DNA of 64,000 bases from Escherichia coli (GTDB taxonomy: Bacteria; Pseudomonadota; Gammaproteobacteria; Enterobacterales; Enterobacteriaceae), in assembly GCF_011045215.1 (NCBI RefSeq), contig NZ_CP049201.1; one strand, 5' to 3'. Position 1 is the first letter of the stretch. Each line of letters starts with the position of its first letter. The position numbers and the translations under genes were made by a program. The notes under the pieces are model-generated. The model was not told the DNA's origin. It worked only from the letters and a program-made list of their open reading frames with translations, and did no database searches. Positions 2,824 through 34,391 of the stretch are shown piece by piece.

Positions 2824-4004
2824 ATGGTAAGGCGCTTTCAGCGGATATAACACTGACGCCGAAAGATATTGGTACGCTTAACTCAACAACAATGTCATTC
2901 AGCGGTGGTGCTGGTTGGTTCAAATTAGCAACGGTAACCATGCCACAGGCGAGTTCTGTTGTTTCAATTACGTTGATTGGTGGAGCTGGATTTAACGTGG
3001 GGTCACCTCAACAGGCAGGTATATCTGAACTTGTTTTGCGTGCAGGTAATGGTAATCCGAAGGGGATTACTGGTGCTTTATGGCAGCGCACATCGACAGG
3101 GTTTACAAATTTTGCCTGGGTCAATACATCTGGTGATACTTACGATATTTACGTTGCAATCGGAAATTATGCGACTGGTGTAAATATTCAATGGGATTAT
3201 ACCAGTAATGCCAGCGTGACGATTCATACGTCACCAGCATATTCTGCTAATAAGCCGGAAGGGTTAACGGACGGTACAGTTTATTCACTCTATACGCCAT
3301 CAGAACAGTTTTATCCGCCTGGCGCACCAATCCCGTGGCCATCAGATACCGTTCCGTCTGGCTATGCCCTGATGCAGGGGCAGACTTTTGACAAATCTGC
3401 CTACCCGAAACTTGCAGTCGCTTATCCGTCAGGCGTGATCCCTGATATGCGTGGCTGGACGATTAAGGGCAAGCCCGCCAGTGGTCGTGCCGTATTGTCT
3501 CAGGAACAGGACGGCATTAAATCGCATACCCACAGCGCCAGCGCATCCAGTACGGATTTGGGTACGAAAACCACATCGTCGTTTGATTACGGAACCAAAT
3601 CCACGAATAACACCGGGGCGCATACCCATAGTATTAGCGGGACTGCAAATAGTGCCGGTGCGCACCAACACAAGAGTTCCGGTGCATTTGGTGGCACGAA
3701 CACGAGCATTTTTCCTAATGGTTATACTGCGATTTCAAATCCAAGCGCGGGGATTATGAGCACAACAAGCGGTACTGGCCAGACTCGTAATGCAGGGAAG
3801 ACATCATCAGATGGTGCTCATACCCACTCACTGTCCGGCACTGCTGCAAGCGCAGGTGCACACGCACATACTGTCGGTATTGGTGCTCATACGCACTCCG
3901 TTGCGATTGGTTCACATGGACACACCATCACCGTTAACGCTGCTGGTAACGCGGAAAACACCGTCAAAAACATCGCATTTAACTATATTGTGAGGCTTGC
4001 ATAA
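2799..4004 (+). CDS. Side tail fibre protein, C-terminal receptor-binding portion with His-box repeats (probably a 5'-truncated remnant using an internal GTG)
   Basis: 401-aa ORF with repeated GAHTHS/GAHQH/GAHAHT/GSHGHT motifs and a C-terminal ...[22 protein letters not shown] typical of lambdoid Stf and T4 gp37-like fibre tips. Its stop overlaps the tfa start (TAATGG). The N-terminal tail-attachment region expected for Stf is absent. Confidence 0.65.
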
Positions 4005-4585
4005 TGGCATTCAGAATGAGTGAACAACCACGGACCATAAAAATTTATAATCTGCTGGCCGGAACTAATGAATTTATTGGTGAAGGTGACGCATATATTC
4101 CACCTCATACAGGTCTGCCAGCAAACAGTACCGATATTGCACCGCCAGATATTCCGGCAGGCTTCGTGGCTGTTTTCAACAGTGATGAGGCATCGTGGCA
4201 TCTTGTTGAAGACCATCGGGGTAAAACGGTTTATGACGTGGCTTCCGGCGACGCGTTATTTATTTCTGAACTCGGCTTATTACCGGAAAATGTCACCTGG
4301 TTATCCCCGGAAGGGGAGTTTCAGAAGTGGAACGGCACAGCCTGGGTGAAAGATGCAGAAGCAGAAAAACTGTTCCGGATCCGGGAGGCGGAAGAAACAA
4401 AAAACAACCTGATGCAGGTAGCCAGTGAGCATATTGCGCCACTTCAGGATGCTGTAGATCTGGAAATCGCAACGGAGGAAGAAAACTCGTTGCTGGAAGC
4501 CTGGAAGAAGTATCGGGTGTTGCTGAACCGTGTTGATACATCAACTGCACCTGATATTGAGTGGCCTGTAATACCAGAAGTTTAA
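4004..4585 (+). CDS. Tail fibre assembly protein (Tfa)
   Basis: 193-aa ORF translationally coupled to stf; the C-terminus ...[49 protein letters not shown] is the conserved Tfa motif. Confidence 0.85.
4431..4543 (+). repeat. Direct repeat copy 1: 3' segment of tfa (about 88% identical to 8260-8373)
   Basis: atattgcgccacttcaggatgctgtagatctggaaatcgcaacggaggaagaaaactcgttgctggaagcctggaagaagtatcgggtg... is nearly repeated at 8260-8373. Confidence 0.8.
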
Positions 4586-4589
4586 AATA

Positions 4590-4617
4590 AAAGCCCGCTT
4601 AAAATATCGCGGGCTTC
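4590..4617 (-). terminator. Hairpin (aaagcccgc...gcgggcttt) with a T-run on the minus strand; candidate terminator for the minus-strand catalase operon and possibly for tfa
   Basis: Inverted repeat aagcccgc / gcgggctt between convergent tfa and catalase genes; the minus-strand reading gives the stem followed by TTATTTTA. Confidence 0.5.
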
Positions 4618-4704
4618 GAAATATAAATGTATTTTCAGAGGCTAGAGCTTAGGATATCTCAGCGGCAATTAACTTATGAGGGATAGCTAAATACCAGAAG
4701 ATAA

Positions 4705-5595
4705 TTAGTTTTTACTATTTATCTTTGTTTGTGGTTCTCCTTCAGCAAGCTCAGCGCCAGTGACAGGATTGATGTCTTCATGGGATTTCAACCTTGTTGC
4801 CATAGCTTTTATCATAGCTTCTTGCTTGGTCGAAAGATTTATCGAGGCCTTCCCATCCCCACCGTCAACCGCTGGAACTGGATCGGAAATATAGTCAAAG
4901 TTTTCATCACTGTTCCAACTACCTCTGACGTCTTCACCTTCTGACATGTTGTAATATACGTTTTTGTATTTCTCAATTGGTGGTAATTTTCCTGGTGGAA
5001 AGGTGTTGCGAATTGAATGTAATGCTTTTTCAAATGAAAGCATGTGTGCTGCTTCCCTGGTCATTAAAAATGCCAGAGTGTCTTTTACTCCAGGATCATC
5101 AGTAACATTAATGAGACGTTCGTAAATGATCTTTGCCCGAGCTTCAGCTGCAATATTTGAACGAAGATCGGCCGTGACTTCGCCAATAGTATCAACATAA
5201 GCTGCAGTCCAGGGTACTCCAGCTGAATTAGTTAATGCTGGGCCTCCTCCGTAGAGGAGAGAAGTTATATGGCTGTCATTGCCATTTTGAGTTAAGGAAC
5301 GGTAAAGCTCAGCTTCATTCTCAGTTCCTTCAGCAAGTGCTCCTTTTGCACCTTTGTTGAGCATACCAACAAGAGAACCAATAATTTCGAGATGACTTAG
5401 TTCTTCTGTTGCTATGTCCATCAGCATATCCCTTCGGCCTGCATCTTCATCACTTAAGCCTTGAGTGAAGTATCGGCATGCTGCTGCAAGCTCACCCTGT
5501 GGCCCGCCGAATTGTTCTAAAAGTAGATTAGCCAAGCCTGGGTTTGGCTCACTTACACGTACTGTATATTGAAGTTTTTTCACGTGTCTAAACAT
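4705..5595 (-). CDS. Manganese (non-haem) catalase, KatN-like
   Basis: 296-aa product with ferritin-like Mn-catalase architecture (…EELSHLEIIGSLV…, …TREAAHMLSFEKAL…). It is last in a yciG-yciF-yciE-catalase gene order, as in the Salmonella yciGFE-katN operon. Confidence 0.8.
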   Translation of the reverse strand: MFRHVKKLQYTVRVSEPNPGLANLLLEQFGGPQGELAAACRYFTQGLSDEDAGRRDMLMDIATEELSHLEIIGSLVGMLNKGAKGALAEGTENEAELYRSLTQNGNDSHITSLLYGGGPALTNSAGVPWTAAYVDTIGEVTADLRSNIAAEARAKIIYERLINVTDDPGVKDTLAFLMTREAAHMLSFEKALHSIRNTFPPGKLPPIEKYKNVYYNMSEGEDVRGSWNSDENFDYISDPVPAVDGGDGKASINLSTKQEAMIKAMATRLKSHEDINPVTGAELAEGEPQTKINSKN

Positions 5596-5613
5596 AATGC
5601 CTCCTCAAAAGAA

Positions 5614-6120
5614 TTATTTTTTGGCTTCAACTCCATCAATTTCAGATCTGACCATGAATTGCTCAGTGGTGTCAGGAATATGGTTAAGAAGCCATTCAGC
5701 CATTTGTTTTTCTTCATTAAGAATTGCTTCAATAATGGGTACTGAAGCTGTATCACCCGCATTTTTGGCTGCTGCGAGAAGAGATGTGTAGCACGCAATT
5801 TCAAATTGTTCGAAAACATAGCCACTGATCGAACCTTTGACAATTTCATCAGATGGAAAAATTCCACCAATGGATTGCCCAAACGCGGCCATTTTACTCA
5901 TAGAGTCTTTAATGACAGAGCGCGAAATATTATTACGATCAAGTATGCTTTCAAGCTGTGAAAGCTGGTTCTTTGTTTCGCTAATGTGCTGCTCAATTCT
6001 GGAACGTAACTCTGGATAGTTTTCTATCCGGCTGGCCATAGACTCAAGCATTTTTTCAGCTTGTTTCTCCATCGCATGTGCATCACGAAGCCAGTCATGG
6101 TAATGTTCAATTCTATTCAT
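5614..6120 (-). CDS. YciE-like ferritin-like/DUF892 stress protein
   Basis: 168-aa product MNRIEHYHDWLRDAHAMEKQAEKMLESMASRIENYPELR... closely resembles E. coli YciE. Confidence 0.85.
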   Translation of the reverse strand: MNRIEHYHDWLRDAHAMEKQAEKMLESMASRIENYPELRSRIEQHISETKNQLSQLESILDRNNISRSVIKDSMSKMAAFGQSIGGIFPSDEIVKGSISGYVFEQFEIACYTSLLAAAKNAGDTASVPIIEAILNEEKQMAEWLLNHIPDTTEQFMVRSEIDGVEAKK

Positions 6121-6156
6121 AATCTGTTTATCCTAAAAGAAATTGAAGTCTATAGT

Positions 6157-6663
6157 TCAGGAGTTATCCTGAGCTTTTTTATTAACGTTATTAAATGCCA
6201 GGTCTGTTAATTTGACATCAGTAGCTTTTTCCTCTTCCAGTGTTTCTTTCAGGAGTTTAGCCGCTTTTTTATATCCTAATTGCTCAGCGAGTGTTACCAA
6301 AGTGCCATAACTGGCAATTTCATAGTGCTCTACTTTTTGTGCTGCAGCAATCAATGCAGCATCACGTACTTCATTTTTATCAGTGCTTTCAATTACCTCA
6401 TTCGCCTCTTCGATAAGTCCTTCCATTGCGGCACACTTAATTCTTTTCAATTTAAGACCATCTTCAGAATCAACAATCTGATCGATGCGTTCAATTTGAC
6501 CATGTGTCTCATCAAGATGTGACTGAAAAGCAGCGGTTAATTTATCACTATATGCAGAGCGACTAAGTTTAGACAGTGCCTTTGTTAGTTGTTTCTCAGC
6601 GCTGTATGTATCCGATAATAAGTGGATGAAGATATCTTCAACAGATTTAATTTGCATAATCAC
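6157..6663 (-). CDS. YciF-like DUF892 stress protein
   Basis: 168-aa product ...VEDIFIHLLSDTYSAEKQLTKAL...EVRDAALIAAAQKVEHYEIASYGTL... closely resembles E. coli YciF. Confidence 0.85.
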   Translation of the reverse strand: MIMQIKSVEDIFIHLLSDTYSAEKQLTKALSKLSRSAYSDKLTAAFQSHLDETHGQIERIDQIVDSEDGLKLKRIKCAAMEGLIEEANEVIESTDKNEVRDAALIAAAQKVEHYEIASYGTLVTLAEQLGYKKAAKLLKETLEEEKATDVKLTDLAFNNVNKKAQDNS

Positions 6664-6735
6664 TCCAGAGTTTTCACTGCGAGCCCGTAGGCTCGCAGTT
6701 AGCTTCAGTTATTCACGAATGTAGGGGATGATAAA

Positions 6736-6918
6736 TTAAGAGTCAGATTTACGGCCGCCACCATGGCTATTCTGACCACCTTTTTTCCCTGCTTCTGATG
6801 CTCTTTGTGGATCGTTTTTAAAATTACCGCCACTATGTTGGCCGCCTTTACGACCAGCGTCAGAAGCTTTTTGTCGATCTTCAGCGAAATTACCTGCACC
6901 GCCACGATGTTCGGTCAT
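6736..6918 (-). CDS. YciG-like KGG-repeat general stress protein
   Basis: 60-aa product MTEHRGGAGNFAEDRQKASDAGRKGGQHSGGNFKNDPQRASEAGKKGGQ... with KGG repeats, resembling YciG/YmdF; first gene of the four-gene minus-strand operon. Confidence 0.8.
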   Translation of the reverse strand: MTEHRGGAGNFAEDRQKASDAGRKGGQHSGGNFKNDPQRASEAGKKGGQNSHGGGRKSDS

Positions 6919-7383: not shown

Positions 7384-7414
7384 CGCAGCACGTCGTATGC
7401 AAGAACGTGCTGCG
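7384..7414 (-). terminator. Rho-independent terminator candidate downstream of the methyltransferase gene
   Basis: 9-bp perfect stem cgcagcacg / cgtgctgcg; on the minus strand it is followed by ATTAATTTTT. Confidence 0.55.
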
Positions 7415-7422
7415 GTTGGATG

Positions 7423-8091
7423 CTATTTTTTCCCTGAAGCGGAAAACATTACTACAGTACCTTGAACCTTGGTTTTAACATTCTCGAAATGCTCTGAGAG
7501 TATATGTGTTAAGCCTTCTTCGGAATCTCTTGTGTTTGAAAAGATGCCTTTCTGATTGTAAATGCGCATCAGTTTTTGACCGAAGCGATTGTGCACAATT
7601 CCATCGCCAAGAATTGTGGCTCCGTATAGAGTTCCATCGCCAGTTAAGGCCTGCGCCGCATTGCGTATTACACAGCTTTTTGTAGATATATTTCCAGGCA
7701 GGCAGTGAAGAAGGTAAAACATGGAAATGGAATCAAATTGACCATGTAACGCCGCGGGATAAGGTTCAAAAACATCATGGCTAATTTTATGTTTAATTTT
7801 TGATTCCCCAGCCCTTGTAGATGCCGCGTTCAGGCTAGCTTCGTTCAAATCCATTAAAGATATCAGACTACTCTCAGGTACGTGAGTAAGGTAAAACCCA
7901 GTTCCAACACCAATATCCAGATGGTTGTTACCTAAATGTTCCAGAAAGTGTGGAAGAAGGTGTTCCTTTGTAGGACATCCCCATGCAAGCCGATTTGATA
8001 CTCCCAAAACCCACCAGTCATAAAGCTTTAGGGTAAGTGGTGTGTAAATTTTAGCCCCATCATCTGTGTTTTTTTTCATTAATTTCACCAT
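7423..8091 (-). CDS. ybcY: Class I SAM-dependent methyltransferase (YbcY-like), apparently intact
   Basis: 222-aa ORF with the SAM-binding motif LDIGVGTGFY and a Rossmann-type methyltransferase layout. It occupies the ybcY position of DLP12, between the tfa copies. Confidence 0.7.
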   Translation of the reverse strand: MVKLMKKNTDDGAKIYTPLTLKLYDWWVLGVSNRLAWGCPTKEHLLPHFLEHLGNNHLDIGVGTGFYLTHVPESSLISLMDLNEASLNAASTRAGESKIKHKISHDVFEPYPAALHGQFDSISMFYLLHCLPGNISTKSCVIRNAAQALTGDGTLYGATILGDGIVHNRFGQKLMRIYNQKGIFSNTRDSEEGLTHILSEHFENVKTKVQGTVVMFSASGKK

Positions 8092-8147
8092 GTTATAGTT
8101 TTATTTGTGAATTAAATCAATTATGGCAATGAATTACAAGGGGTTAA

Positions 8148-8453
8148 ATGCTGCCGCAGCATGGCGATATTGAAATAGCCTGGTATGCTTCAATACAGCA
8201 GGAGCCGAATGGCTGGAAGACCGTCACCACACAGTTCTACATCCAGGAATTCAGTGAGTATATTGCGCCACTGCAGGATGCTGTAGATCTGGAAATCGCA
8301 ACGGAGGAAGAAAGATCGTTGCTGGAGGCATGGAATAAATATCGGGTATTGTTGAATCGTGTTGATACATCAGTAGCTCTGGGTATGAAGCTGTTTGTAA
8401 CTCATGTTACAGTAACAGCCATTACTATCTCGAAGGTGCAAAATGTATATTGA
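8148..8453 (+). pseudogene. tfaX: Tail fibre assembly gene remnant (tfaX-like), carrying only part of the Tfa C-terminal domain
   Basis: 101-aa ORF with ...[38 protein letters not shown]... but no Tfa N-terminal half, and a divergent C-terminal tail. Confidence 0.7.
8260..8373 (+). repeat. Direct repeat copy 2: tfa 3' segment (pairs with 4431-4543)
   Basis: tattgcgccactgcaggatgctgtagatctggaaatcgcaacggaggaagaaagatcgttgctggaggcatggaataaatatcgggta... Confidence 0.8.
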
Positions 8454-8581
8454 TTTGATATTTTATAAATTTACTTCGAATCTGGCACGTCAACTTTTGA
8501 TTAAAGTAATATCAGTTTTCGGCGAAAAAAGGACCGTGTACATGAGACGATTTCATACAAGAATAACAAAAATATGAATAT

Positions 8582-8615
8582 GCTCCCAATGCAATATATG
8601 TTTTGCATTGGGAGC
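8582..8615 (-). terminator. Rho-independent terminator candidate for the peptidase gene
   Basis: 12-bp stem gctcccaatgca / tgcattgggagc; the minus-strand reading is followed by a T-rich run. Confidence 0.55.
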
Positions 8616-8636
8616 AAATAGCGGAATATTTTGAAA

Positions 8637-10121
8637 TTATTGTATTTCTGCTTCAGAATTTCCTGGGCAGTATATATTTTCTATTTTTTGTGGAGTGATC
8701 AGGTGATGTACAACTGCTTTATCTACACATAAATTAACTCCGGTGAGAGCTAATGTATGCCCATCACCATTTATTGTTAGTAACGGGCTGGAAAATTTCT
8801 CTGCCATCTTACGGGCATTAATCCAGGGCGTTGTTGGATCGTATTTGTGTGCTACAAACAGTAAACCAGAGGGCAGAACAGTATTTTTCAGGCGAGTTTT
8901 GTTCAGGTCGCTATGTATTGGCCATAATTCACAAAAATCAGGTGAATCGGAACGTCCATTGTCAAAGTTAATAGCCGGGAAGGCATTCGCAAGAGCCTCT
9001 TTTCGGAATTTTCGCTCTTCTGGTGTTAATTGCTCATCCCCCTGATCTACACAAAGGATTACCCCCGAAGCATCACTTGACTCTTCTGAGGCTATCGGAG
9101 CACTGAGCGCAGTTTCAATTTCATTACTGACAATCCCCTGAGAGAACTGGCGTATGGCAGTTGCAAGGGTTGGCCATGATGAACGCCATAGCAGAAGGTC
9201 TGTTGTTAATGATATGAGTTCATCTGAAGATATATTTTCTCCCTTACTGTCTAATAAAGGTTTGTGATGTAATTTTGATAATAGCTCATGGAACTGAGTT
9301 ATTGCCTTATCTCTGTCTGAAGAAAGCGGGCAACTTTTTGTACGCGCACACCAGGATGCAAAGCGATCAAACGTTTCCTGATAACTCTGTGCCTGTTTGA
9401 GTTGCCATGTGAAGTTGTTCTCCAGGTCATCGATATCGACGACTCCATCAAGAACGATAGATCTTACGTTGTAGGGAAAACGTTCTGCATATAAGGCTGC
9501 AATTTGAGTTCCATACGAATACGCCACGGCTGTCAGTTGTTTATCCCCCAAGGCTTGCCTAATACGATCAATATCGTATACAGCCTCGTTAGAGCCGATA
9601 TGGCGAATGACTTCGGCTCCGGTATTATGGATACAGGCATTAATTTTATTTAATACTTGTTGCTTTTCGGTTATGTTTTCCTGAGTCTCTGTATCTGATT
9701 GTCGGCAGTTTATTGTCGGAGTGGACTGTCCGACGCCTCGAGGATCAAATCCAATAATATCCCATGACTCACGAAGATTTGTGACTGGCCAGTCAAAGTT
9801 AATATAAGGATTTATGCCTGGCAACCCGGGACCACCACTTATTATCAGGATACTTCCTTTATGCTTGCTTTTTGCCGGCAATTTTGTCAACGCTAGTTTG
9901 ACTTGTGATTTTTTTTCATAAGAAGCATCTCCGCCTGTGTCTGTATATTTTAATGGAACAGACAAATAACCACATAGTAAGTCAGGAGACGGTTTTTCCT
10001 CACCAAACCAGTGGTTGAATTGACTGGCCATACAGGATTGCCACTGTATCTGCTGGGCAGATACGGTTACTGGTAGAAGTAACGTTAAAACAACTTTGAA
10101 ATGAGTAATTATTTTTCGCAT
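8637..10121 (-). CDS. Secreted alpha/beta-hydrolase, S33-type (tripeptidyl/prolyl aminopeptidase-like) peptidase
   Basis: 494-aa ORF with an N-terminal signal peptide (MRKIITHFKVVLTLLLPVTVSA), a GGPGLPG oxyanion-type motif and a nucleophile elbow VAYSYGTQ (G-x-S-x-G variant). Confidence 0.65.
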   Translation of the reverse strand: MRKIITHFKVVLTLLLPVTVSAQQIQWQSCMASQFNHWFGEEKPSPDLLCGYLSVPLKYTDTGGDASYEKKSQVKLALTKLPAKSKHKGSILIISGGPGLPGINPYINFDWPVTNLRESWDIIGFDPRGVGQSTPTINCRQSDTETQENITEKQQVLNKINACIHNTGAEVIRHIGSNEAVYDIDRIRQALGDKQLTAVAYSYGTQIAALYAERFPYNVRSIVLDGVVDIDDLENNFTWQLKQAQSYQETFDRFASWCARTKSCPLSSDRDKAITQFHELLSKLHHKPLLDSKGENISSDELISLTTDLLLWRSSWPTLATAIRQFSQGIVSNEIETALSAPIASEESSDASGVILCVDQGDEQLTPEERKFRKEALANAFPAINFDNGRSDSPDFCELWPIHSDLNKTRLKNTVLPSGLLFVAHKYDPTTPWINARKMAEKFSSPLLTINGDGHTLALTGVNLCVDKAVVHHLITPQKIENIYCPGNSEAEIQ

Positions 10122-10260
10122 TGTGTCTCTGAATATCGGAATAAAGATAAAATTTGAATATATTGAGGTCTTGTGTTGCGGTAAGAGATTACACGTTATG
10201 ACATAGGTTAAATGCTTACAAAATTAGTGGATATTGTCTACTTGTAACTGTAAACAAATT

Positions 10261-10287
10261 CCCCGGGGTTATACAATACCACCGGGG
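10261..10287 (-). terminator. Hairpin (ccccgggg...ccgggg) downstream of ompT; candidate terminator
   Basis: GC-rich inverted repeat about 20-45 nt past the ompT stop on the minus strand. Confidence 0.4.
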
Positions 10288-10307
10288 AGAAAATCTGGTT
10301 AACTTCG

Positions 10308-11261
10308 TTAAAAGGTGTACTTAAGACCAGCAGTAGTGATGAAGTTATAGTTTTCTATGCCTGCACCATTTTTGCTGTAGTCTGAAGTGTTATCATTGTG
10401 ATCATAAAGTGAAGTATTACCTTTTTTATTCGTAACCCGATTCCATGCGCCTTCAACATAAACTTTTGCGTTAGGTGTTACGTAATAACCTGCATTGACT
10501 GCAACAGAATAGTAATTTTGGTCTTTGACCTTACTGCGATAAGTGATTCTTTTTCCCGGGTCATAGTGTTCATCGTTATCAGATGATTCCACCCAGCCGC
10601 TGTATTTAAATGTGCCACCGAGTTCAAAATCTTCATAACGATAACTTCCAGTCAAGCCAATGTAGGGCATTTTAAAACGTTGTTTGTAGCCGATTGCTCT
10701 TTCTCCATTCGGGAAGGAGCCGATATCATCTCTGAATCCCTCCTCAGAACTGTAGATATAGGAACCACCTCTGGCTGTAAAGCTATAACGGCTTTCCTGA
10801 TATCCGGCCATGAGTCCCAGGCGGTAATTGGGTTCGTTGAGGAGCCAGCCTTTGATATTCAGATCAAATTCGTTGGCATAATTGAGTTGTGTATCAGGGT
10901 GCTTACTTTCATCTGTCCAGGTTCCGGGGTTACTGGAATCCATCCAGTCCTGATCGACCATATTGCCACCCCGGCTGCCGAGAGTAGTCCAGCCCGCAGC
11001 CCCAATAGATATCTGGGGCATCAAATCCCAATTAATTGCACCTTTAATAATTGCAGCGTTATTGAATTTCCAGTCGAGTTGACTGACTTTTCGGCCTCCT
11101 TCTTCAGCTAGATAAACGCGCTCTTTTGTTTTTCCGCTCAGAGTTCCAAGACTAATGTCCACATTTATGTTGTCAGGAGTAAACGATATAGTCTCGGTAG
11201 AAGCAAAAGAGCTGATCGCAATAGGGGTTGTCAGGACTATTCCCAGAAGTTTCGCCCGCAT
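10308..11261 (-). CDS. ompT: Outer-membrane protease VII (omptin)
   Basis: 317-aa product MRAKLLGIVLTTPIAISSFASTETISFTPDNINVDISLGTLSGKTKERVYLAEEGG... matches OmpT nearly residue for residue. Confidence 0.95.
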   Translation of the reverse strand: MRAKLLGIVLTTPIAISSFASTETISFTPDNINVDISLGTLSGKTKERVYLAEEGGRKVSQLDWKFNNAAIIKGAINWDLMPQISIGAAGWTTLGSRGGNMVDQDWMDSSNPGTWTDESKHPDTQLNYANEFDLNIKGWLLNEPNYRLGLMAGYQESRYSFTARGGSYIYSSEEGFRDDIGSFPNGERAIGYKQRFKMPYIGLTGSYRYEDFELGGTFKYSGWVESSDNDEHYDPGKRITYRSKVKDQNYYSVAVNAGYYVTPNAKVYVEGAWNRVTNKKGNTSLYDHNDNTSDYSKNGAGIENYNFITTAGLKYTF

Positions 11262-11684
11262 AAAAGTTCTCCATTCAATCGTTTTAATGATTGAATATGT
11301 ATTTTTTATATCTAACTTAATGAGTCAATTACATATTGCTCCACTGTTTATATTTTGTTTAGTATTGAATGATTATCACAATGCGCTATCTATTTTTGGT
11401 TTAATTATCTGTTATTGTTTCATATTGCGGTTTTACTGTGTGTTTTTTTTATGCTTTTGTGGTGCTTTTATCTATTTAAGTGCCATGCCTTTAGAGGCAT
11501 ATAAGCGAAAATAGCACGAGGTTTATCCTCAATTGCTATGTTTTTTAGTACAAAAAAGAGGGACAAAACTGAGACACATAAGGCCTCACAATGGCTTGCA
11601 AGGCTTTACATGTTTTGAGGTAGTGGGACGTGTGAGCGCAGAGATGGCGCGGTAAGTTGTTGACTTAAAATGTCGTTCTAGGAA

Positions 11685-11729
11685 CTTCTAAGTCGTGGGC
11701 CGCAGGTTCGAATCCTGCAGGGCGCGCCA
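11685..11729 (+). other. Prophage attR: duplicated 3' ~45 nt of tRNA-Arg (argU); a tRNA fragment, not a functional gene
   Basis: cttctaagtcgtgggccgcaggttcgaatcctgcagggcgcgcca is the 3' half of argU, with no matching 5' half or D-arm upstream. This is the expected right junction of an argU-integrated prophage. Confidence 0.85.
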
Positions 11730-11774
11730 TTTCTTCTTCATTTATGCCCGTCTTATCCGTTTCCGCTTTGCCCT

Positions 11775-12536
11775 TCACCACATCACTTTTTGTCGCTGTT
11801 TGGCGAGATAATTCAACGGTGTCAGGCCGTAAAACGCCTTAAAAACAGAGATAAAGTACGACGTGCTGCTATAGCCACATAATTGCGCCACCTGAGTGAT
11901 ATTTTTGTTATCCATCAATAACATCTGTACGGCGTAACGCATACGACACTCTGTGACAATCTGGCTATAGCTGGTATTTTCGTTTTTTAATTTCTTTTTG
12001 AGCAGGCTGGGGCTTAAACATAGCGAACTGGCGACAATTCGCAGATTCCAGTAATGCTGAATATCGCTTTGAATAATGCGGCAGACGCTGTCGCGGACGC
12101 TGCTGCGTAAGATATACATCAGTAGGGCAATAAACCGCGATTGCTCAAGAAAGTTAGACAATACGGTAAAAAGCAATGCGCGCGTCAACTCCGCTTCGCA
12201 GGGTTTGCTGGGTTGCTGCTTGCTGTGGTTGGCGGCTAGCCGGAACACTTCCGGTGTACGGCTATGACAAGCGATAACCGGGGTAGCCAGCCGCGACCAG
12301 GGCTTTACACAGGTTAAGTTCTTATTTAAAAACAACAGATAATCGTTGATGATGTTACGGTTGATGTGGGTGATTAATACGTGATTTAACGTTGAGAGTT
12401 CAATGACGTTATTGTTGCACGCGAAGGCGGCCAGGTAGTTTTTCGGAAGGGTAAACGTAGCATGGTTATTGACGCTTACCTCTACCTCTTTTTCGGTCAG
12501 GATCACCACGCAAGGTTCACTGCTGCTCAATTGCAT
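11775..12536 (-). CDS. envY: AraC-family transcriptional regulator EnvY (porin thermoregulation)
   Basis: 253-aa product MQLSSSEPCVVILTEKEVEVSVNNHATFTLPKNYLAAFACNNNVIELS... with a C-terminal AraC HTH. Confidence 0.9.
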   Translation of the reverse strand: MQLSSSEPCVVILTEKEVEVSVNNHATFTLPKNYLAAFACNNNVIELSTLNHVLITHINRNIINDYLLFLNKNLTCVKPWSRLATPVIACHSRTPEVFRLAANHSKQQPSKPCEAELTRALLFTVLSNFLEQSRFIALLMYILRSSVRDSVCRIIQSDIQHYWNLRIVASSLCLSPSLLKKKLKNENTSYSQIVTECRMRYAVQMLLMDNKNITQVAQLCGYSSTSYFISVFKAFYGLTPLNYLAKQRQKVMW

Positions 12537-12718
12537 TTCGCACTCCTCAGATATCAGAAACTCCGCTCAAAGGATCTATGCTTCCTGCATGAGTGATCGG
12601 CCCGTTCGCCGATAACGATCTTCTTTCTTTAGCATGCTTTTTAGCAATTAATCTTGATGGAATTCTGACGAGAGCGAAAGAGGTAAGCCAGGTCGTACCC
12701 GACTTACCTGGAGGAGAT

Positions 12719-13609
12719 TTAATACTCGAGAATGCCGTGCGCGACGGGCAAATAGCGCAGAGAGAAATAGAGAGTGTCTTTACCGCAAGAGGAACGTTTC
12801 GCTAACAGCGAGGCAATTTCTGCGTCCGGTTTCGGTTTCGCTGTAAAGGTTTTGCCTTTGCCGGCGACAAACAGTTCATAAACAATGCCGCTTGCTGGGG
12901 CGGAGCTTTGGCAATCGGCGCTGGCCTGTAGATAACGTTCACGCTGTTCAGCGGTAAGTTTATTCACGCCGCTGCCATCCTGTACCCAGACATTAACGCC
13001 GGTTGCTTTAACGTGTTCCAGCAGTTGGCGATAGCCATCGGGCGACATGTTTCCGGCGAAAAAACTACTGATATAAACCGGTTTTGCTGAAACATCGCTA
13101 ATCAGCCGCTGCGCGTTGTTTAACCATGTTAGCAAAGGCTGACGGGCGGCTTCGCTGCGCCAGTTCAGGTCGTCAATTTCCGCGCTGATGTACCAGCCAT
13201 CCGGCGTTACGCCAGGCGCGGCGCTCCATAATCTGGCTTGCTGGAGATCGGCAGCCAGCAGGCGATTAAGATAGCTTTCCAGCGCTGCGGACGACTGTTT
13301 CTGGTGCATAAAAAATTCCGGATCGGCGTTCAGCCCGACAATCAGCTTCAGGCCAGCCTGTTGCGCAGCTGCGGCCCGCTTAAACAATAACGTGCGCTGT
13401 TCTGGCTGGGTAAATGCATCGCCGTAACGGGTCCATTGCAAAACCAGGGTATCGAAGCCTTGCAAACGTAACTGACTCATCAGCCCCTGCCACTGGGTAT
13501 CGGTAACCTGACTATCACGGTTTTGTGGTTGCCAGATAATACCTTTCATCGCAAAGGAAAAAGGGCTGACCAAAAGCAGTGTCAGCAATACGAAAATGAA
13601 CTTACGCAT
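12719..13609 (-). CDS. ybcH: DUF4434-family periplasmic protein YbcH
   Basis: 296-aa product with signal peptide MRKFIFVLLTLLLVSPFSFA; matches YbcH. Confidence 0.85.
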   Translation of the reverse strand: MRKFIFVLLTLLLVSPFSFAMKGIIWQPQNRDSQVTDTQWQGLMSQLRLQGFDTLVLQWTRYGDAFTQPEQRTLLFKRAAAAQQAGLKLIVGLNADPEFFMHQKQSSAALESYLNRLLAADLQQARLWSAAPGVTPDGWYISAEIDDLNWRSEAARQPLLTWLNNAQRLISDVSAKPVYISSFFAGNMSPDGYRQLLEHVKATGVNVWVQDGSGVNKLTAEQRERYLQASADCQSSAPASGIVYELFVAGKGKTFTAKPKPDAEIASLLAKRSSCGKDTLYFSLRYLPVAHGILEY

Positions 13610-16582
13610 TTACCAGTGCACTCCAATGGTGAGAAACGCGTTGTTGCGCTCTCCGTTACGTTGATTAATCGCCTTAAAGGTATGTTGATACTCGACGCCG
13701 AGACTGACTTTGTGCGGCCAGGCGTCGTAGTGCGTCTCGCCGGTCCAGATATTCCAGCGGACCCCGACACCGCCAAGCTGCGCGCCCTGAGTGCCTTTAT
13801 CACGATAGCCGTTGTCCTGAACGTGAGCGTAAGGCTCAATAGTCTGTCCGTTAGCTACCTTCTGATGCCAGCTGACGCGATAATCTGCCGTCCACGCCTG
13901 AATATCCTGGCGGATATATTGCGCCGCATCGAGGTACAGGTTTTGGGCAAACCAGCCTGAACCGCTCGGGTGCCATTCGTCGCTGTATTTGCCGCCATTA
14001 AAGAATGAGGCGCTGGCGCGCAGCATGGTATCGGATGCGCCATTTTGCCCGTTCAGCGGCAACTGCTGTTCGACGGCGAGGAAAAAGATCTGATCGCGCA
14101 GCGGCTTCCAGCGTAGACCGGTGCCGGACATCGGATTTTTCACCGGCATCATCACCCCGTTTTCTCCGGTATCGGCAAAGACGCGGCTATAAACTGAAAG
14201 CAGGTCGCCTTCCAGCAGCATATTTCGTCCGATGCGGTATTCGGCTTCCAGTTGCCCGTAGCTACGATAGCTTTTCCCTGGCGCTGCGCCGCCGACATTA
14301 TTGTTAGCGGTACTCATTGCGCCGGAACGCAAGCCGATGGAAGAATCGAAACTGAACGTCCAGCGGCGACCGACCTCCTCATGCAAACGGCGGAAATTGA
14401 AGCGTTGCTGATTTTGTTCTGGCGTCAATGGGGTTATCAGCGCCTGATTATCAATGTCATCAATCACCAGCCGGGCGTAGTGCTGCGTCGCAGGCATGTC
14501 ATCCAGACGCTGGTTCACGTAGGCCAGTTGTCGGATCAGTGCCGGATCGTCCGGAAGCCCTTTTTGCGCCTGTTCGAGCATTTCCCGCGACTGTGCGATA
14601 TCACCGCTATCCCACAAGGCGTAACCAAGCGCTGCCTGGATGTTGCTATTATTCGGTTCCAGTTCCAGCGCGGCGCGCAAATCACTCACCGCGGCCGGGA
14701 CATTATGACGTTGGCGATAAATTGTCGCCCGCGCAACGTAAGCGTTGGCAGAAGGCGCAATATTGATTGAGCGCGTGAGATCGTTCAGTGCGAGTTCCGG
14801 CTGACCAGGAATGTAACGTTGCGCATGCAGCCACCAGTAGAGGGCATTGCTTCCCAGTCCACGTTGTTCTGCCTGTTGTAGCCAGCGATCGCGAGCCGCA
14901 CCATTTCCTGCCGCCTGGGCGGTATTGGCAGCAGCAAGCAGATCCTCATTGCTCATGTCGTGAAGACTGATTTTCTGCCAGGCCGCCAGTGCGGTGGCGT
15001 AGTCCTCAACCTGATACGCCTGATAGGCTACCGCACGATGTTGCCAGGCGTTCGGTTGTCGTTGTTCGGCCTGAAGCCATGCATACAACGCCACACCGGG
15101 TAGCGTGTCCCGATAACACTTTGCCAGACGGTTCCAGGCGGCGGCATCGTAGGAAGGCGACATATCGCCCAGCAAGCGAACTATTGCCGGGCAATTATCT
15201 GCAATACCCGGCAACTGACTTTGCCACTGACGTTGCTCCGCCAGCGGTAAGGGTTTCGATAAAATCGCCACCTTCGCCGGCGTTGCCAGGTAAGGATGAC
15301 TTTCCAGCAGAGACGCCAGTCGCGCCATTAAAGTCTGGCTGATACGCGCATCGCCCTGGAAAGGATAGCGTTGCAGCAATAAATCGGCAGCTTCCCGTGA
15401 CTGCTCGTTCTGCATCAGTTGCCAGGTTAGTTGATCCAGGCGGGTAAGATTTGCCGGTTCTTGCTGATACAGCAAGCGTGCCAGACGCAGAGCTTCAGCC
15501 TTGTTACGGGTCGCCACGCTGACAGCATAACGCTCCTCAAGCATTTCATTGGCGGGGAGGGTGGCGAGCAGTTTTTGCGCTGCGTCGTACTGACCTTCTT
15601 TTAACAGCACCGGTAGCGTCGCGCCAACAACATACTGGCGGTTATCGGCAAACTGCACCGTATAATTCGCCAATGCCTGAACGGGGTTGGCGCTGTATTT
15701 AGATAACAGATAGAGCCAACTTTTCTCTTGTGCGTCCGTGGTAAACAGCGGCTTATTTTCAATGAGATAATGCTGGAGGCGTGCTTTTTCGCCACGATAA
15801 GCCAGCGCGGTCGCGTAAGTAATATATGACTGAGGATCGGTGAAGATCCCCTGTGATTGCAGTGCCAGGATCCGATCGTCCAGCTGCCCGGCAAGAAGCA
15901 CGTCAAACCACTGACGGCGTTCTGCCGCGCTTAATGTGTTCTGCTGGCGTGCTTCATTGTATAGCGTATCTGCCTGGGACCATTGTTTCAGGTAGATTGC
16001 CCGTTGCAGCAGATCGGTTCGCAGCGTTTTTCCTTCCGGCGATGCAGCAAACGTCGCATCGTTCAGTTGCGCTCTGGCGACAGGTAACTGTGCCAGCCGC
16101 AGGGCATTCTGCCCGACTTCACTGCGACAACGCAGGGTCGGCGCAGCATCGCACGCTTTTTGCTGGGCAAGCAGTTCTTCAACAGTTGTAATGCTTTTCA
16201 CTTCAACCGGAATAGCCGCCAGACTGCGCTCAAGTCGGGCATCTCCTGGGTGACGTTTCAGTTGATCCTCAAGCAACAGCCGCGCCCGGTCATCATGACC
16301 AAAATGGCGATAGGCTTCCGCAAGGTATAAAGTCAGCGGAATATTATCCGGCACCTGCTGGTGTATATATTCAAATTCGCGGATGGCGGTTGCTTCGTCG
16401 TTATTTTTCTGTGCCTTCAGCGCCTTATCGAGACGGGGATAAATAACAAAATGGCGATAATCGCTCAGCCCCAGCTCTTCTGCGCTGGTGCCGATATTGT
16501 CTGCGAGTGCGCTGGTACTCAATAAAGACGTCAGCAGTAAACCAGACCATCCGATGACGCGATTAAGGTTATTCTCCTTCAT
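13610..16582 (-). CDS. nfrA: Bacteriophage N4 adsorption protein A (outer-membrane TPR protein)
   Basis: 990-aa product from MKENNLNRVIGWSGLLLTSLLSTSALA (the ORF track has an in-frame 7-codon upstream extension); TPR-rich with a C-terminal beta-barrel-like region. Confidence 0.9.
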   Translation of the reverse strand: MKENNLNRVIGWSGLLLTSLLSTSALADNIGTSAEELGLSDYRHFVIYPRLDKALKAQKNNDEATAIREFEYIHQQVPDNIPLTLYLAEAYRHFGHDDRARLLLEDQLKRHPGDARLERSLAAIPVEVKSITTVEELLAQQKACDAAPTLRCRSEVGQNALRLAQLPVARAQLNDATFAASPEGKTLRTDLLQRAIYLKQWSQADTLYNEARQQNTLSAAERRQWFDVLLAGQLDDRILALQSQGIFTDPQSYITYATALAYRGEKARLQHYLIENKPLFTTDAQEKSWLYLLSKYSANPVQALANYTVQFADNRQYVVGATLPVLLKEGQYDAAQKLLATLPANEMLEERYAVSVATRNKAEALRLARLLYQQEPANLTRLDQLTWQLMQNEQSREAADLLLQRYPFQGDARISQTLMARLASLLESHPYLATPAKVAILSKPLPLAEQRQWQSQLPGIADNCPAIVRLLGDMSPSYDAAAWNRLAKCYRDTLPGVALYAWLQAEQRQPNAWQHRAVAYQAYQVEDYATALAAWQKISLHDMSNEDLLAAANTAQAAGNGAARDRWLQQAEQRGLGSNALYWWLHAQRYIPGQPELALNDLTRSINIAPSANAYVARATIYRQRHNVPAAVSDLRAALELEPNNSNIQAALGYALWDSGDIAQSREMLEQAQKGLPDDPALIRQLAYVNQRLDDMPATQHYARLVIDDIDNQALITPLTPEQNQQRFNFRRLHEEVGRRWTFSFDSSIGLRSGAMSTANNNVGGAAPGKSYRSYGQLEAEYRIGRNMLLEGDLLSVYSRVFADTGENGVMMPVKNPMSGTGLRWKPLRDQIFFLAVEQQLPLNGQNGASDTMLRASASFFNGGKYSDEWHPSGSGWFAQNLYLDAAQYIRQDIQAWTADYRVSWHQKVANGQTIEPYAHVQDNGYRDKGTQGAQLGGVGVRWNIWTGETHYDAWPHKVSLGVEYQHTFKAINQRNGERNNAFLTIGVHW

Positions 16583-18806
16583 TTTCGGACTCCAGTTGCG
16601 CAACCTGTTCTGTGTTTAAACCTGCTTTGAGTAATAGTGATTGCATCGAAACTTGTAATTCGCGTTGAATTGTCAGGACGCGATCCAACGTTTCCTGGCT
16701 GATAACGCCTTCGGTGACCAAAAACTTGCCGAGCGGCAGAGAACTGCGTTCATGGCGCAATAACAACACGTTAATTGCTGAACGATTAATATGACCGAGC
16801 GTGGTCAGTATTTCGGCGAACAGGAACTGATGCGGCACATATTGCCGCCAGATTTCACCGGCCTGCTGTTCCGTGAGCCACTGATGCTGAACCGCATTGT
16901 ACAACATTGCCCGCGGATCGTGACCGCGTCGGCGTGCATACCAGTGACGTAACCCCGTGACAATTTGTCCCCGCAGAACAATGACGTAACGCACTTTGCG
17001 TCCGACTTTACGCGTCAGGGCCGCCAGCGAAACCGGGTCAATACCATCTTCACTGCCGACAATTAACTCATCATTTTCCAGACGCAGCGGCAGTACCGCA
17101 TAATGCAGCGCCACGGAGGCCGGCATTTCGGCAATCAGCGAGGAAGGGATCTGCCAGGCATCGATGGATTCCCACGCCACGCCGTTTTGCTCTGCCAGCG
17201 CCTGTGCCAGCTGCTCGGCGCTAATCAGCCCCTGCATCAGCATTGAACCGCCCAGGCGTAGACCTTCGACGCGATTACGCAGTGCTGTATCGAGTTGTTC
17301 TTCAGTGATGACCTGATTTTCCAGCAGAATTTGGCCTAACGGGCGCAACGAGCGGGTATCGCCAGTCACGCTGGGGAAGTCATGCGTTGTTTTATCCCAC
17401 GCGACGCGACGTGGATCGCCGTGTTGGAGTACCTGTTTTAGCGCGCGCCAGTTGGCCATGAAGTTAATCAGGTTGCCCCAGAAAAGACGCAGGACGGAAA
17501 GCAGCCCCTGCGTCAGGCCGTAGTAGCCAGTAACGAAAATCACCCGCTGCACGATGCGGTTAACCATCAAACCAAAGTTTAGCCACAGCAGGGTCATTAA
17601 CCATGCGCTGCCGCTGAAAATAGAAAGGAAATGCCAGGCATCGGGCCACAAACTTTCATACGCCAGCAACAGCAAAAGCTGGATCATCACCAGCATCGCG
17701 AGGAAGCTGACAAAGTTACTGATTGCCCCTTTGCGGTCGCGCCAGAGAAAGTAGTTCAGCGTCAGGCTGGAGGTCCATTTATGGGTTTTAAAGCCCTGGA
17801 AAACAATGCCGATGATCCAGCGGGATTTTTGTCGAACCGCAGTCGAAAAGGTATCGGGGAAATATTCGCGCACGCAGATCATGTTTGATGTCCGTGCGTG
17901 CTGTAAAAATTTACGCTGTTCGCGTTCTTTGGCTTCGTCCACCACCGGAAAACGGACAAAAATTTCCGTCATACCTTTTTCTTTCAGGCGGAAGCCAATG
18001 TCGTAATCTTCAGTAAGACTCTGCACGTCGAAAGCAATACCGTCACCGTCAGCTAACAGTGCGGTCACGGCGCGGCGGCTGAAACAGGTGCCGACGCCTG
18101 CGCTGGGCACTTGTCCGGCGAGGGCTTCACGCACCGGAACATCTTTGCCATGCAGCTCTGAAAACTCATCAATGTAAGTCATGCTGGTGAAGTGCGTCCA
18201 TTCGCGTTCAAACGGATACACTGGGATCTGAATCAGATCTTTACGCTCGACCAGATAGTTGAACAGACGCAATTCCATCGGTGAAATCACATCTTCGGCG
18301 TCATGCAGAATAAAACCAGCAAAAGCGAAATTGGCGCTACGCTCAAACTGGGTGATGGCGTCCAGCACGTTGTTCAGACAGTCGGCTTTGCTGGTGGGGC
18401 CAGGACGCGCGCAGACTACCTTATGCACATTCGGGAAGCGAGCGCACACTTCGTCAACATCACGCTGAGTATCGGGGTCGTTGGGGTAGGTGCCAACAAA
18501 GATATGATAGTTTTCGTAGTCGAGCGTGGTCGCCGCCAGCTCGGCCATATTGCCGATGACGCCCGTTTCATTCCACGCCGGAACCATAATCGCTAACGGT
18601 TTTTCATCTGGTTTATACAGTTCGCGGTAACTCATTCGCGGGTAGCGGCGATAAACACTCAACTTGCGTTTAATGCGGCGTACCCAGTAGACGACATCAA
18701 TAAAAAAATCGTCCAGCCCGCTGATGAACATGATGACCGCTAACGTTATCGCGATTACTTTTAAGCCATAGAGCCAGGTAGCAAAAACATCAAGAAGCCA
18801 GTCCAC
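16569..18806 (-). CDS. nfrB: Bacteriophage N4 adsorption protein B (inner-membrane family-2 glycosyltransferase)
   Basis: 745-aa product MDWLLDVFATWLYGLKVIAITLAVIMFISGLDDFFIDVVYWVRR...; overlaps the nfrA start. Confidence 0.9.
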   Translation of the reverse strand: MDWLLDVFATWLYGLKVIAITLAVIMFISGLDDFFIDVVYWVRRIKRKLSVYRRYPRMSYRELYKPDEKPLAIMVPAWNETGVIGNMAELAATTLDYENYHIFVGTYPNDPDTQRDVDEVCARFPNVHKVVCARPGPTSKADCLNNVLDAITQFERSANFAFAGFILHDAEDVISPMELRLFNYLVERKDLIQIPVYPFEREWTHFTSMTYIDEFSELHGKDVPVREALAGQVPSAGVGTCFSRRAVTALLADGDGIAFDVQSLTEDYDIGFRLKEKGMTEIFVRFPVVDEAKEREQRKFLQHARTSNMICVREYFPDTFSTAVRQKSRWIIGIVFQGFKTHKWTSSLTLNYFLWRDRKGAISNFVSFLAMLVMIQLLLLLAYESLWPDAWHFLSIFSGSAWLMTLLWLNFGLMVNRIVQRVIFVTGYYGLTQGLLSVLRLFWGNLINFMANWRALKQVLQHGDPRRVAWDKTTHDFPSVTGDTRSLRPLGQILLENQVITEEQLDTALRNRVEGLRLGGSMLMQGLISAEQLAQALAEQNGVAWESIDAWQIPSSLIAEMPASVALHYAVLPLRLENDELIVGSEDGIDPVSLAALTRKVGRKVRYVIVLRGQIVTGLRHWYARRRGHDPRAMLYNAVQHQWLTEQQAGEIWRQYVPHQFLFAEILTTLGHINRSAINVLLLRHERSSLPLGKFLVTEGVISQETLDRVLTIQRELQVSMQSLLLKAGLNTEQVAQLESENEGE

Positions 18807-31754: not shown

Positions 31755-32882
<1,128 letters not shown>

Positions 32883-33322
32883 TTATGTTGGCGTTTTCTA
32901 TTCAGTATAGAAGTCGGAGCGGCTGGGCGAGATGCGGAAGTTCTGGAATGTTTCTTTTTTTGGTGATGGTGAACTGATGGTGCCTGAAGCAATTTGGCTA
33001 CTTTTGCAATGTGACAAGTTATGGCACGGCTGGCTGGTGGCGAAGAATTTTGACGATTGAGGCATGTAGAAAAAACGGGCTCAGCTTCAGTTGATTAAAT
33101 GAGGAGTGAGAAGTCCGAAACAGGATTTACTGTATAAATAAACAGCCATTTTGTTGAGGAAGGGTAAGATAACGGCGGGTGCCTGAAGCTTTCCGGTTTC
33201 AGGTTTACTCTGAGGTCTGGAAAGATGAAGCCCCAGGAGATATTTCTATCAACCCTGGGGCTGCCACTCCAAACCAGACAATTTGGATGGTAGTTCCTTC
33301 TTCGCATGGAGGCAATATAAAC

Positions 33323-33475
33323 ATGCTGACGAAATATGCTCTTGTGGCAGTCATAGTGCTGTGTTTGACGGTACTGGGATTTACGCTTCTGGTCGGAGAC
33401 TCGCTGTGTGAGTTTACGGTGAAGGAACGTAATATTGAGTTCAGGGCTGTTCTCGCTTACGAACCGAAGAAGTAG
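33323..33475 (+). CDS. hokE: Hok-family type I toxin HokE (small membrane peptide)
   Basis: 50-aa product [50 protein letters not shown]; an in-frame upstream-extended ORF (33179-33475) is consistent with a mok-like leader frame. Confidence 0.85.
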
Positions 33476-33596
33476 CCGTTGTGCGGGGAGTAATCCCCGC
33501 ATATCCGGTTGTCAGGTCAGGATGGTAAGGCACCTGCTTTACACTTTCGCCCGCGGTCAGTGATGGCTGCGGGCGAATCGTACCAGATGTTGTCAA

Positions 33597-34226: not shown

Positions 34227-34249
34227 ATTCGAGACTGATGACAAACGCA

Positions 34250-34355: not shown

Positions 34356-34391
34356 AACGACGCGCACTTTGTCAACAATCTGACGTTAGCA

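Follow-up and report, generated by a model that had tools for sequence, protein, structure and literature searches.

The stretch of DNA analysed here (the window) comprises 64,000 nucleotides of Escherichia coli contig NZ_CP049201.1 (NCBI RefSeq assembly GCF_011045215.1). It contains, on the reverse strand at 8637..10121, an open reading frame (ORF) with an ATG start codon that encodes a protein of 494 amino acids, referred to below as the hydrolase. RefSeq entry WP_001226373.1 is of equal length and shares 99.8% sequence identity with it, and ECs_1662 of O157:H7 Sakai (annotated 'hydrolase') is the same gene. The gene for the outer-membrane protease OmpT, a member of the omptins, lies immediately upstream on the same strand; its product is 98.7% identical to K-12 OmpT at the amino-acid level, and envY, ybcH and nfrA lie past it. 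The 3' side of the hydrolase gene is flanked by a tfaX-like remnant, annotated in RefSeq as an incomplete tail fibre assembly protein. An earlier note on this DNA had placed the 494-residue ORF between the tfaX remnant and ompT, in AT-rich DNA with a terminator of its own. The position was confirmed by the ORF list and by the annotation; the G+C content is 42.0% for the hydrolase gene and 43.5% for ompT versus 52.6% for the core genes in window 12719-40000, and a terminator-like hairpin follows the stop codon. The coordinates of all features are collected in Table 1.

The N-terminus of the hydrolase, MRKIITHFKVVLTLLLPVTVSA followed by QQ, has by sequence the form of a classical Sec signal for signal peptidase I (SPase I), as the earlier note had read it. 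The signal is without a lipobox because the first cysteine is residue 30. Residues 1-20 have a predicted local distance difference test score (pLDDT) below 50 in the AlphaFold model, and equivalent hydrophobic N-termini were found in the alignment of homologues. The mature protein has a computed mass of ~52.6 kDa and a computed pI of 5.45. The term 'secreted' in the earlier note was retained as far as the export signal is concerned; nothing points beyond the periplasm, and 'exported to the periplasm' is the wording used here for the predicted location.

Pfam searches assigned PF00561 (Abhydrolase_1; E 1.8e-32, residues 91-460) and PF08386 (TAP-like C-terminal domain; E 6.3e-14, residues 386-479). 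PF12146 ('Serine aminopeptidase, S33') gave a weak, non-significant match (E 1.2), and in NCBIfam only sub-threshold similarity to prolyl aminopeptidase models was found; the S33 label of the hydrolase derives from its Pfam/NCBIfam similarity to the prolyl aminopeptidase and TAP models. The best match among the sequences of the PDB was Mycobacterium tuberculosis Hip1 (Rv2224c; E 1.8e-50, residues 21-475), with TnmK1 and TnmK2 trailing far behind (E 1.4e-18 and 1e-8). A model was calculated with AlphaFold (AF2) from an alignment of 18 homologues, which range from E. coli to Nocardia, Amycolatopsis and Mycobacterium at 27-81% identity and which also served for the analysis of conservation; it had a mean pLDDT of 85.9 and a predicted template-modelling score (pTM) of 0.87. 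A Foldseek search with this model ranked six Hip1 entries at the top with template-modelling (TM) scores of 0.76-0.81, and Hip1 and TnmK were followed by prolyl aminopeptidases and tricorn factor F1. Domain content, PDB match and predicted fold thus bear out the description of the protein as an S33-type α/β-hydrolase in the earlier note and, on these comparisons, the hydrolase is a member of the group of exported S33-type α/β-hydrolases formed by Hip1 and by Tap, SlpD and SlpE of Streptomyces.

The serine nucleophile elbow that had been noticed in the sequence is A-Y-S202-Y-G, and a check of the Ser-Asp-His triad gave Ser202, Asp428 and His455, all three invariant in the 18 homologues and aligned with the triad of Hip1. 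The residues of the G96-G97-P98-G99 (GGPG) oxyanion motif and Tyr203 are invariant in the same set, and all ten cysteines of the hydrolase (residues 30, 50, 139, 163, 258, 264, 357, 397, 465 and 485) are either invariant or at least 90% conserved. The hydrolase most likely acts as a peptidase, either exo- or endo-acting, through Ser202, Asp428 and His455, with an oxyanion hole that would be formed by Gly97 and Tyr203. In Hip1 the triad is S228/D463/H490, and 11 cysteines with five predicted disulfides are present; protease activity has been shown, with azocasein, Ala-Pro-Ala-pNA and GroEL2 (between Arg12 and Gly13) as substrates alongside esters (PMC4022732). Its oxyanion hole consists of Gly110 and Tyr229, and Glu113 binds the P2 lysine (PMC13041806).

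Hip1 (Rv2224c, CaeA; PDB entries 5UGQ, 7SFM and 9MD7) is homologous to the hydrolase over its full length (~27% identity in the structural alignment) and resembles it in predicted fold, Ser-Asp-His triad, Gly/Tyr oxyanion hole, pattern of conserved cysteines and export to the cell envelope, the last predicted for the hydrolase from its signal. It differs in that the hydrolase has a Gram-negative host and a plain Sec signal, in the elbow (G-Y-S-Y-G in Hip1), in the residue at the position of Glu113 (Leu100 in the hydrolase) and in having a known GroEL2-type substrate; linkage to an omptin gene is likewise confined to the hydrolase, mycobacteria being without omptins. Hip1-type specificity for lysine at P2, which would suit the products of dibasic cleavage by OmpT, was ruled out by this replacement of Glu113 by Leu100 (GGPGESG versus GGPGLPG). 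The Streptomyces lividans enzymes Tap (TPP A), SlpD (TPP B) and SlpE (TPP C), compared by architecture, share the PF00561 plus PF08386 arrangement of the hydrolase; PF08386 ('TAP-like') is named after the Streptomyces Tap family, and SlpD and SlpE are mycelium-associated. Prolyl aminopeptidases (TIGR01249; PDB entries 1QTR and 1AZW) have in common with the hydrolase the S33-type α/β core around the nucleophile, whereas the match extends over ~100 residues only, the large lid and the TAP C-terminal domain are missing and the TM scores are 0.34-0.37. Assignment as a proline iminopeptidase (NCBIfam TIGR01249) was ruled out by a score of 36.4 bits against a cut-off of 259.75, the match being confined to residues 167-263. 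TnmK1 and TnmK2 (PDB entries 8E18 and 8G5T; TnmK1 solved with TNM H) have the overall fold of the hydrolase (TM ~0.75) and are far more distant from it than Hip1. We take them to belong to the actinomycete biosynthetic pathway for the enediyne tiancimycin, with a chemistry other than proteolysis.

Among 5426 complete E. coli genomes the hydrolase gene was found in 1253, appY in 837 and ompT in 3094; the collection is skewed towards K-12 derivatives and outbreak lineages, and these figures are counts rather than population frequencies. In 1229 of the 1253 genomes at least 80% of the gene was covered, nearly always at 99% identity or more. A 586 bp probe laid over the hydrolase-ompT junction was fully covered in 1233 genomes, so that the hydrolase gene practically always adjoins ompT. 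In O157:H7 Sakai, ECs_1662 and the adjoining ompT (ECs_1663) occupy the right end of prophage Sp8, close to minCDE, which is another chromosomal site than that of the window. The gene is therefore no strain-specific replacement, as had been proposed, the less so since it also accompanies plasmid-borne omptins including that of F. The possibility raised in the earlier note that the gene might prove to be widespread at this site, K-12 included, held for its first half: the gene is widespread next to ompT, and the MG1655 chromosome is without it. Literature searches with the RefSeq accession, with omptin and Hip1 and with the neighbours of ompT and ompP returned no study of the hydrolase gene; a microarray table alone lists ECs1662. 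In isolate cystitis 6 a gene labelled 'ymcE' has been reported 186 bp downstream of ompT (Desloges et al., 2019; PMC6854850). Because the spacer in the window is exactly 186 bp, this gene is probably the hydrolase gene, the name of a small cold-shock gene having been applied to it by mistake.

The association with an omptin extends well beyond ompT itself. Comparison by blastn showed that homology between the window and O157 DNA is limited to 8371-11374 and that homology between the window and an iro plasmid (pCys-11) is limited to 8553-11379 (91%), leaving a common module of ~2.8-3.0 kb which consists of ompT, the spacer, the hydrolase gene and the terminator. In six diverged lineages, with hydrolases of 76-99.8% amino-acid identity, the gene lies directly downstream of an omptin of 315-317 residues on the same strand; this includes all of the more diverged copies (76-82%), where the omptin has 315 residues. 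Plasmid copies of 76-95% amino-acid identity follow diverged omptins, OmpP on F-like plasmids among them, and 168 plasmid records of PLSDB, almost all from Escherichia, fell into the 60-80% identity class. On the classical F plasmid (NC_002483) ompP (32322-33269) is followed after 104 bp by a hydrolase gene (33374-34861; WP_072145210.1), and every OmpP locus examined, that of the classical F plasmid included, has the hydrolase. The protein of F and of F-like plasmids is like that of the window in sequence (~76% amino-acid identity), in its position and orientation relative to the omptin gene, in the spacer hairpin and in the AYSYG elbow; it differs in being plasmid-borne, in its partner (OmpP is 70% identical to OmpT), in a spacer of 92-104 bp and in a better Shine-Dalgarno sequence (AGGAG). 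Since the F plasmid carries this paralogue, F+ strains of K-12 have such a gene, whereas the MG1655 chromosome does not.

The two genes of the pair have diverged together. Pairwise amino-acid identities of the omptins and of the hydrolases were, for example, 70.5/76.2, 72.1/78.8, 79.4/81.5, 90.5/94.7 and 98.1/99.8%, and over 15 comparisons among the six lineages the two identities correlated with r = 0.89. Between lineages the hydrolase had a ratio of nonsynonymous to synonymous divergence (dN/dS) of 0.12-0.14 and the omptin one of 0.07-0.17, which indicates purifying selection on both. Synonymous divergence (dS) between the OmpT and OmpP lineages is saturated or nearly so, with values of ~1.0-1.1 in the hydrolase and 1.9-2.7 in the omptin. 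With an omptin alignment as query, a scan over a single genome of each species gave nine loci, of which three had the hydrolase, all of them on 99%-identical contigs. These three contigs were binned in metagenome-assembled genomes labelled Collinsella, Lachnospiraceae and Haemophilus parainfluenzae and are probably mis-binned E. coli DNA. On these comparisons the cassette is confined to the OmpT/OmpP clade. A search for terminal repeats that would bound the 2.8-3.0 kb module as a discrete mobile element gave only short, imperfect repeats at chance level.

The hairpin downstream of the hydrolase gene begins 20 nt past the stop codon, has a folding energy of -24.3 kcal/mol (z = -6.0) and lies inside the minimal module common with the iro plasmid. 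Between the two genes, a second and G+C-rich hairpin follows the ompT stop codon directly. It is also present in K-12, whose homology begins at 10258, and its CCCCGG...CCGGGG stem is kept in the spacer of every omptin-hydrolase lineage (those of OmpP, of the iro plasmid and of a further locus among them); the spacers of the six lineages measure 92-188 bp and always start with it. This hairpin is probably a leaky ompT terminator or a hairpin that stabilizes the mRNA. No σ70-like promoter was detected on the reverse strand of the 186 bp spacer at the threshold of the promoter scan, by which a promoter of its own is neither shown nor excluded for the hydrolase gene. The gene is expressed in O157 Sakai: a growth-phase microarray recorded its transcript, with a log2 change of -2.53 (a 5.8-fold drop) for ECs1662 and of -2.72 for ompT upon entry into stationary phase (PMC2241611).

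Taken together, we consider it likely that the gene encodes a Sec-exported serine hydrolase of the Hip1 group, probably a peptidase, and that it comes second in an old, mobile cassette of omptin and hydrolase genes. The protein would be exported by Sec and oxidized in the periplasm to an α/β-hydrolase with five disulfides and a helical lid, and it would hydrolyse peptides in the periplasm or cell envelope through Ser202, Asp428 and His455. Its transcription probably proceeds by read-through from the omptin promoter past the leaky conserved hairpin and stops at the strong terminator of the hydrolase gene. Mobile elements would carry the two-gene cassette as cargo: in the window a DLP12-like lambdoid prophage, of which it occupies the right end, and elsewhere prophage Sp8 of O157:H7 and, with OmpP as the partner, F-type plasmids. 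MG1655 would have lost the hydrolase gene by exchange of a segment for appY, CFT073-like strains by a 2 kb deletion. The conserved linkage suggests a functional coupling of the hydrolase with OmpT, in which it might, for instance, trim peptides cut by OmpT. The 'small proteolysis island' of the earlier note is a plausible description that gains comparative support from the conserved and co-diverging linkage and is weakened by the many functional ompT loci without the gene.

The points that weigh against this reading concern the coupling of the two genes and the chemistry of the enzyme. As to the coupling, some 40% of the ompT-positive complete genomes carry the hydrolase and some 60%, through replacement or deletion, do not. 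The protease OmpT of K-12 is active; omptin activity as such does not require the hydrolase, and the coupling is not obligatory. No hydrolase was found within the flanks of the omptin genes of Escherichia albertii (77%), Salmonella enterica arizonae/diarizonae (74%) and Shimwellia (51%), and five homologues at 51-54% identity, which come from Salmonella, Budvicia, Serratia plasmids and two metagenomic contigs, were found to have no omptin gene nearby. The hairpin between the two genes could stop most transcription before the hydrolase gene is reached. Although ECs1662 and ompT both belong to QT cluster 1 of the Sakai microarray (PMC2241611), this cluster is very large and co-regulation is thus only weakly suggested. 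The loci without the pair and the hairpin between the genes would fit a genuine Hip1-family hydrolase that is co-inherited with the omptin in one mobile cargo and is functionally unrelated to it, an explanation which is compatible with the enzymology proposed above and which has a considerable chance of being correct, if somewhat less than an even one. It accounts less well for the fact that adjacency, orientation and spacer hairpin have outlasted the near-saturated synonymous divergence of the OmpT and OmpP lineages, and for the movement of the pair among prophages, sites in the chromosome and several plasmid backbones, flanked each time by other DNA on both sides; the purifying selection on both genes likewise speaks against it.

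As to the chemistry, the first glycine of the canonical G-x-S-x-G elbow is replaced by alanine in the hydrolase. Every sampled homologue from proteobacteria has the alanine too, as do the two closest from Nocardia (P0086 and P0092), and A-x-S-x-G is a variant that occurs in some lipases. A peptidase is not guaranteed because Hip1 cleaves esters too and because TnmK1 and TnmK2, which are not named peptidases, share the fold; the specificity of Hip1 cannot be transferred since its Glu113 corresponds to Leu100. The hydrolase might then be an esterase or lipase, or act on a non-peptide substrate of the envelope. The catalytic versatility of the α/β fold would allow this; Hip1 has also been deposited in the PDB as 'Carboxylesterase A', and it cleaves p-nitrophenyl butyrate (PMC4022732). 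We nevertheless regard an esterase as unlikely. The nearest characterized relatives are peptidases, namely Hip1 and the Streptomyces enzymes TPP A, B and C, to which Hip1 shows 30-38% identity (PMC4022732); the hydrolase has the TAP-like C-terminal domain, the sole similarities in NCBIfam are to prolyl aminopeptidase models, and in the structural search prolyl aminopeptidases and tricorn factor F1 come next after Hip1 and TnmK.

The arrangement of the locus in other strains bears on the age of the cassette. That K-12 has appY at this place and no such gene, as stated in the earlier note, was confirmed by alignment with MG1655, by its annotation and by tblastn. The MG1655 sequence aligns with window 7384-8377 and 10258-17628; the segment with appY, on the opposite strand, lies between, the breakpoints are clean, that at 10257/10258 falls just after the ompT hairpin, and tblastn detected no remnant of the hydrolase in the K-12 locus. 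O157:H7 has an ISEc8 element (IS66 family) inserted ~300 bp downstream of the hydrolase gene. The insertion point matches window 8371-8379 and coincides to within a few bases with the breakpoint of K-12 (8377/8378), which suggests a recombination-prone spot. In strains of the CFT073, UTI89 and E2348/69 type ompT is 272 bp from ybcY (Desloges et al.; PMC6854850). The corresponding locus of strain OV24 (4218-6584) shows a clean 1976 bp deletion of the tfaX remnant and the hydrolase gene with an 8 bp overlap at the junction, and it keeps 157 bp of hydrolase-type spacer (10151-10307), of which 107 bp are missing from K-12. The CFT073-type locus is thus a deletion derivative of the hydrolase arrangement; with the junction probe, ~1031 records fell into the matching identity class. 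Genomes of the CFT073/OV24 type are also without envY (window 11736-12718).

With a deletion derivative that keeps the hydrolase spacer, and with the OmpP-hydrolase pair as outgroup, the hydrolase arrangement is the most parsimonious ancestral state. The omptin-hydrolase pair is probably ancestral on these sequence comparisons, and the appY and deletion arrangements derived; the direction of the event assumed in the earlier note, a replacement of appY, is most likely to be reversed, with the hydrolase as the older partner of ompT. It is improbable that the hydrolase gene was instead inserted recently, in one strain, and displaced appY in a K-12-like ancestor. Such an insertion would explain appY at the same place in K-12, the clean breakpoints and the AT-rich mobile character of the DNA, yet the hydrolase gene is commoner than appY (1253 versus 837 genomes), its arrangement is common with the OmpP lineage at ~70-76% amino-acid identity, and the CFT073-type derivative retains a spacer of hydrolase type that is not found in K-12. 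Decay to a non-functional prophage remnant, for which the pseudogene and insertion-sequence surroundings (the tfaX remnant, and ISEc8 adjoining in O157) and the weak Shine-Dalgarno sequence might be cited, is ruled out for practical purposes by a dN/dS of 0.12-0.14 and by conservation, the gene being full length in at least 1229 genomes with its catalytic and structural residues intact and its transcript recorded in O157 Sakai.

OmpT, OmpP and ArlC have been studied as determinants of antimicrobial-peptide resistance in enterohaemorrhagic (EHEC), uropathogenic (UPEC) and avian pathogenic (APEC) E. coli, and the genomic context of ompT has been linked to differences in OmpT activity between strains (PMC6854850). 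The omptin literature has overlooked an intact and selected homologue of Hip1, a virulence protease of M. tuberculosis, directly downstream of ompT in about two fifths of the ompT-positive complete genomes. The enzyme family itself is known, and what is new is this uncharacterized member and its clear, previously undescribed association with omptins. The view centred on K-12 is also corrected, in that the appY arrangement is a minority state and most likely derived. Should the hydrolase cooperate with the omptin, omptin phenotypes obtained with K-12 or CFT073 as background cover only half of the system; failing such cooperation, the hydrolase remains an abundant and uncharacterized exported enzyme of pathogenic E. 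coli, for which a solved homologue and existing inhibitors and substrates are at hand. A bolder proposal, which we hold to be doubtful, is that OmpT and OmpP have in the hydrolase a partner dedicated to them in the periplasm, a Gram-negative counterpart of Hip1. It would complete the degradation of antimicrobial peptides of the host, or of other proteins, once the omptin has nicked them at the surface, or it would process an envelope or host-modulating substrate. Were this the case, carriers (EHEC O157, many B1 strains and strains with F plasmids) would differ from K-12 and from CFT073-type UPEC in peptide resistance or in their interaction with the host.

Table 1. Positions of the hydrolase gene, its functional sites and the surrounding features in the window.
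Feature	Position	Strand	Evidence and remarks
Coding sequence, Hip1/TAP-like α/β-hydrolase	8637..10121	-	ORF list, Pfam, Hip1 match, AF2/Foldseek, RefSeq annotation
Signal peptide, residues 1-22 (MRKIITHFKVVLTLLLPVTVSA)	10056..10121	-	Read from sequence; predicted SPase I cleavage after VSA
Codon of putative catalytic Ser202, elbow A-Y-S-Y-G	9516..9518	-	Invariant in 18 homologues; aligned with Hip1 Ser228 (GYSYGT)
Codon of putative catalytic Asp428 (YDPTTP)	8838..8840	-	Invariant in 18 homologues; aligned with Hip1 Asp463 (HDPATP)
Codon of putative catalytic His455 (GDGHTL)	8757..8759	-	Invariant in 18 homologues; aligned with Hip1 His490 (GTQHTV)
Intrinsic-terminator-like hairpin	8581..8616	-	Perfect 14 bp stem, 8 nt loop, U-rich tail; terminator scan, inverted-repeat search
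ompT-hydrolase spacer, 186 bp	10122..10307	-	Sequence; weak Shine-Dalgarno (CAGAGACACAATG)
G+C-rich hairpin directly after ompT stop codon	10260..10288	-	Poor U-tract; -18.9 kcal/mol, z = -2.8
ompT, omptin outer-membrane protease	10308..11261	-	Immediately upstream, same strand, first of pair; ORF list, RefSeq
Tail-fibre-assembly (tfaX-like) remnant	8148..8453	+	Flanks hydrolase gene on 3' side; ORF list; homologous to K-12 tfaX
Segment exchanged in MG1655 for 1.5 kb with appY	8378..10257		Breakpoints 8377/8378 and 10257/10258; blastn, K-12 annotation
Segment absent in CFT073/OV24-type arrangement	8175..10150		blastn versus OV24: 7384-8174 and 10151-11735 adjacent

Some further features of the prophage arm and of the window were recorded. 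In the ompT-envY interval, the 50 bp at 11682-11731 are 98% identical to the 3' end of the tRNA-Arg gene that borders the prophage remnant of strain OV24 on its opposite side (3157-3206). This segment is probably, as judged from the match, the attR copy of the DLP12 attachment site, in which case the right end of the prophage would fall between ompT and envY, with ompT and the hydrolase gene just within the prophage and envY beyond it; no complete tRNA was found in the window with ARAGORN. The prophage arm carries on the reverse strand, at 4705-6918, genes for a manganese catalase, two ferritin-like (YciE/YciF-type) proteins and a YciG-like general stress protein. This cluster is also present in O157 Sp8 and in strain Res13, and the K-12 DLP12 locus has no counterpart. 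The ybcY gene (7423-8091, reverse strand) encodes an intact class I S-adenosylmethionine-dependent methyltransferase of 222 residues, likewise in other strains, and is a pseudogene in the MG1655 annotation. Rfam matches that reached the gathering scores were obtained in the window at 4347-4545, 33177-33331, 34276-34317 and 62658-62751; they were IS009 (inside the tail-fibre-assembly gene region), the sok antitoxin RNA, ES036 and STnc70.

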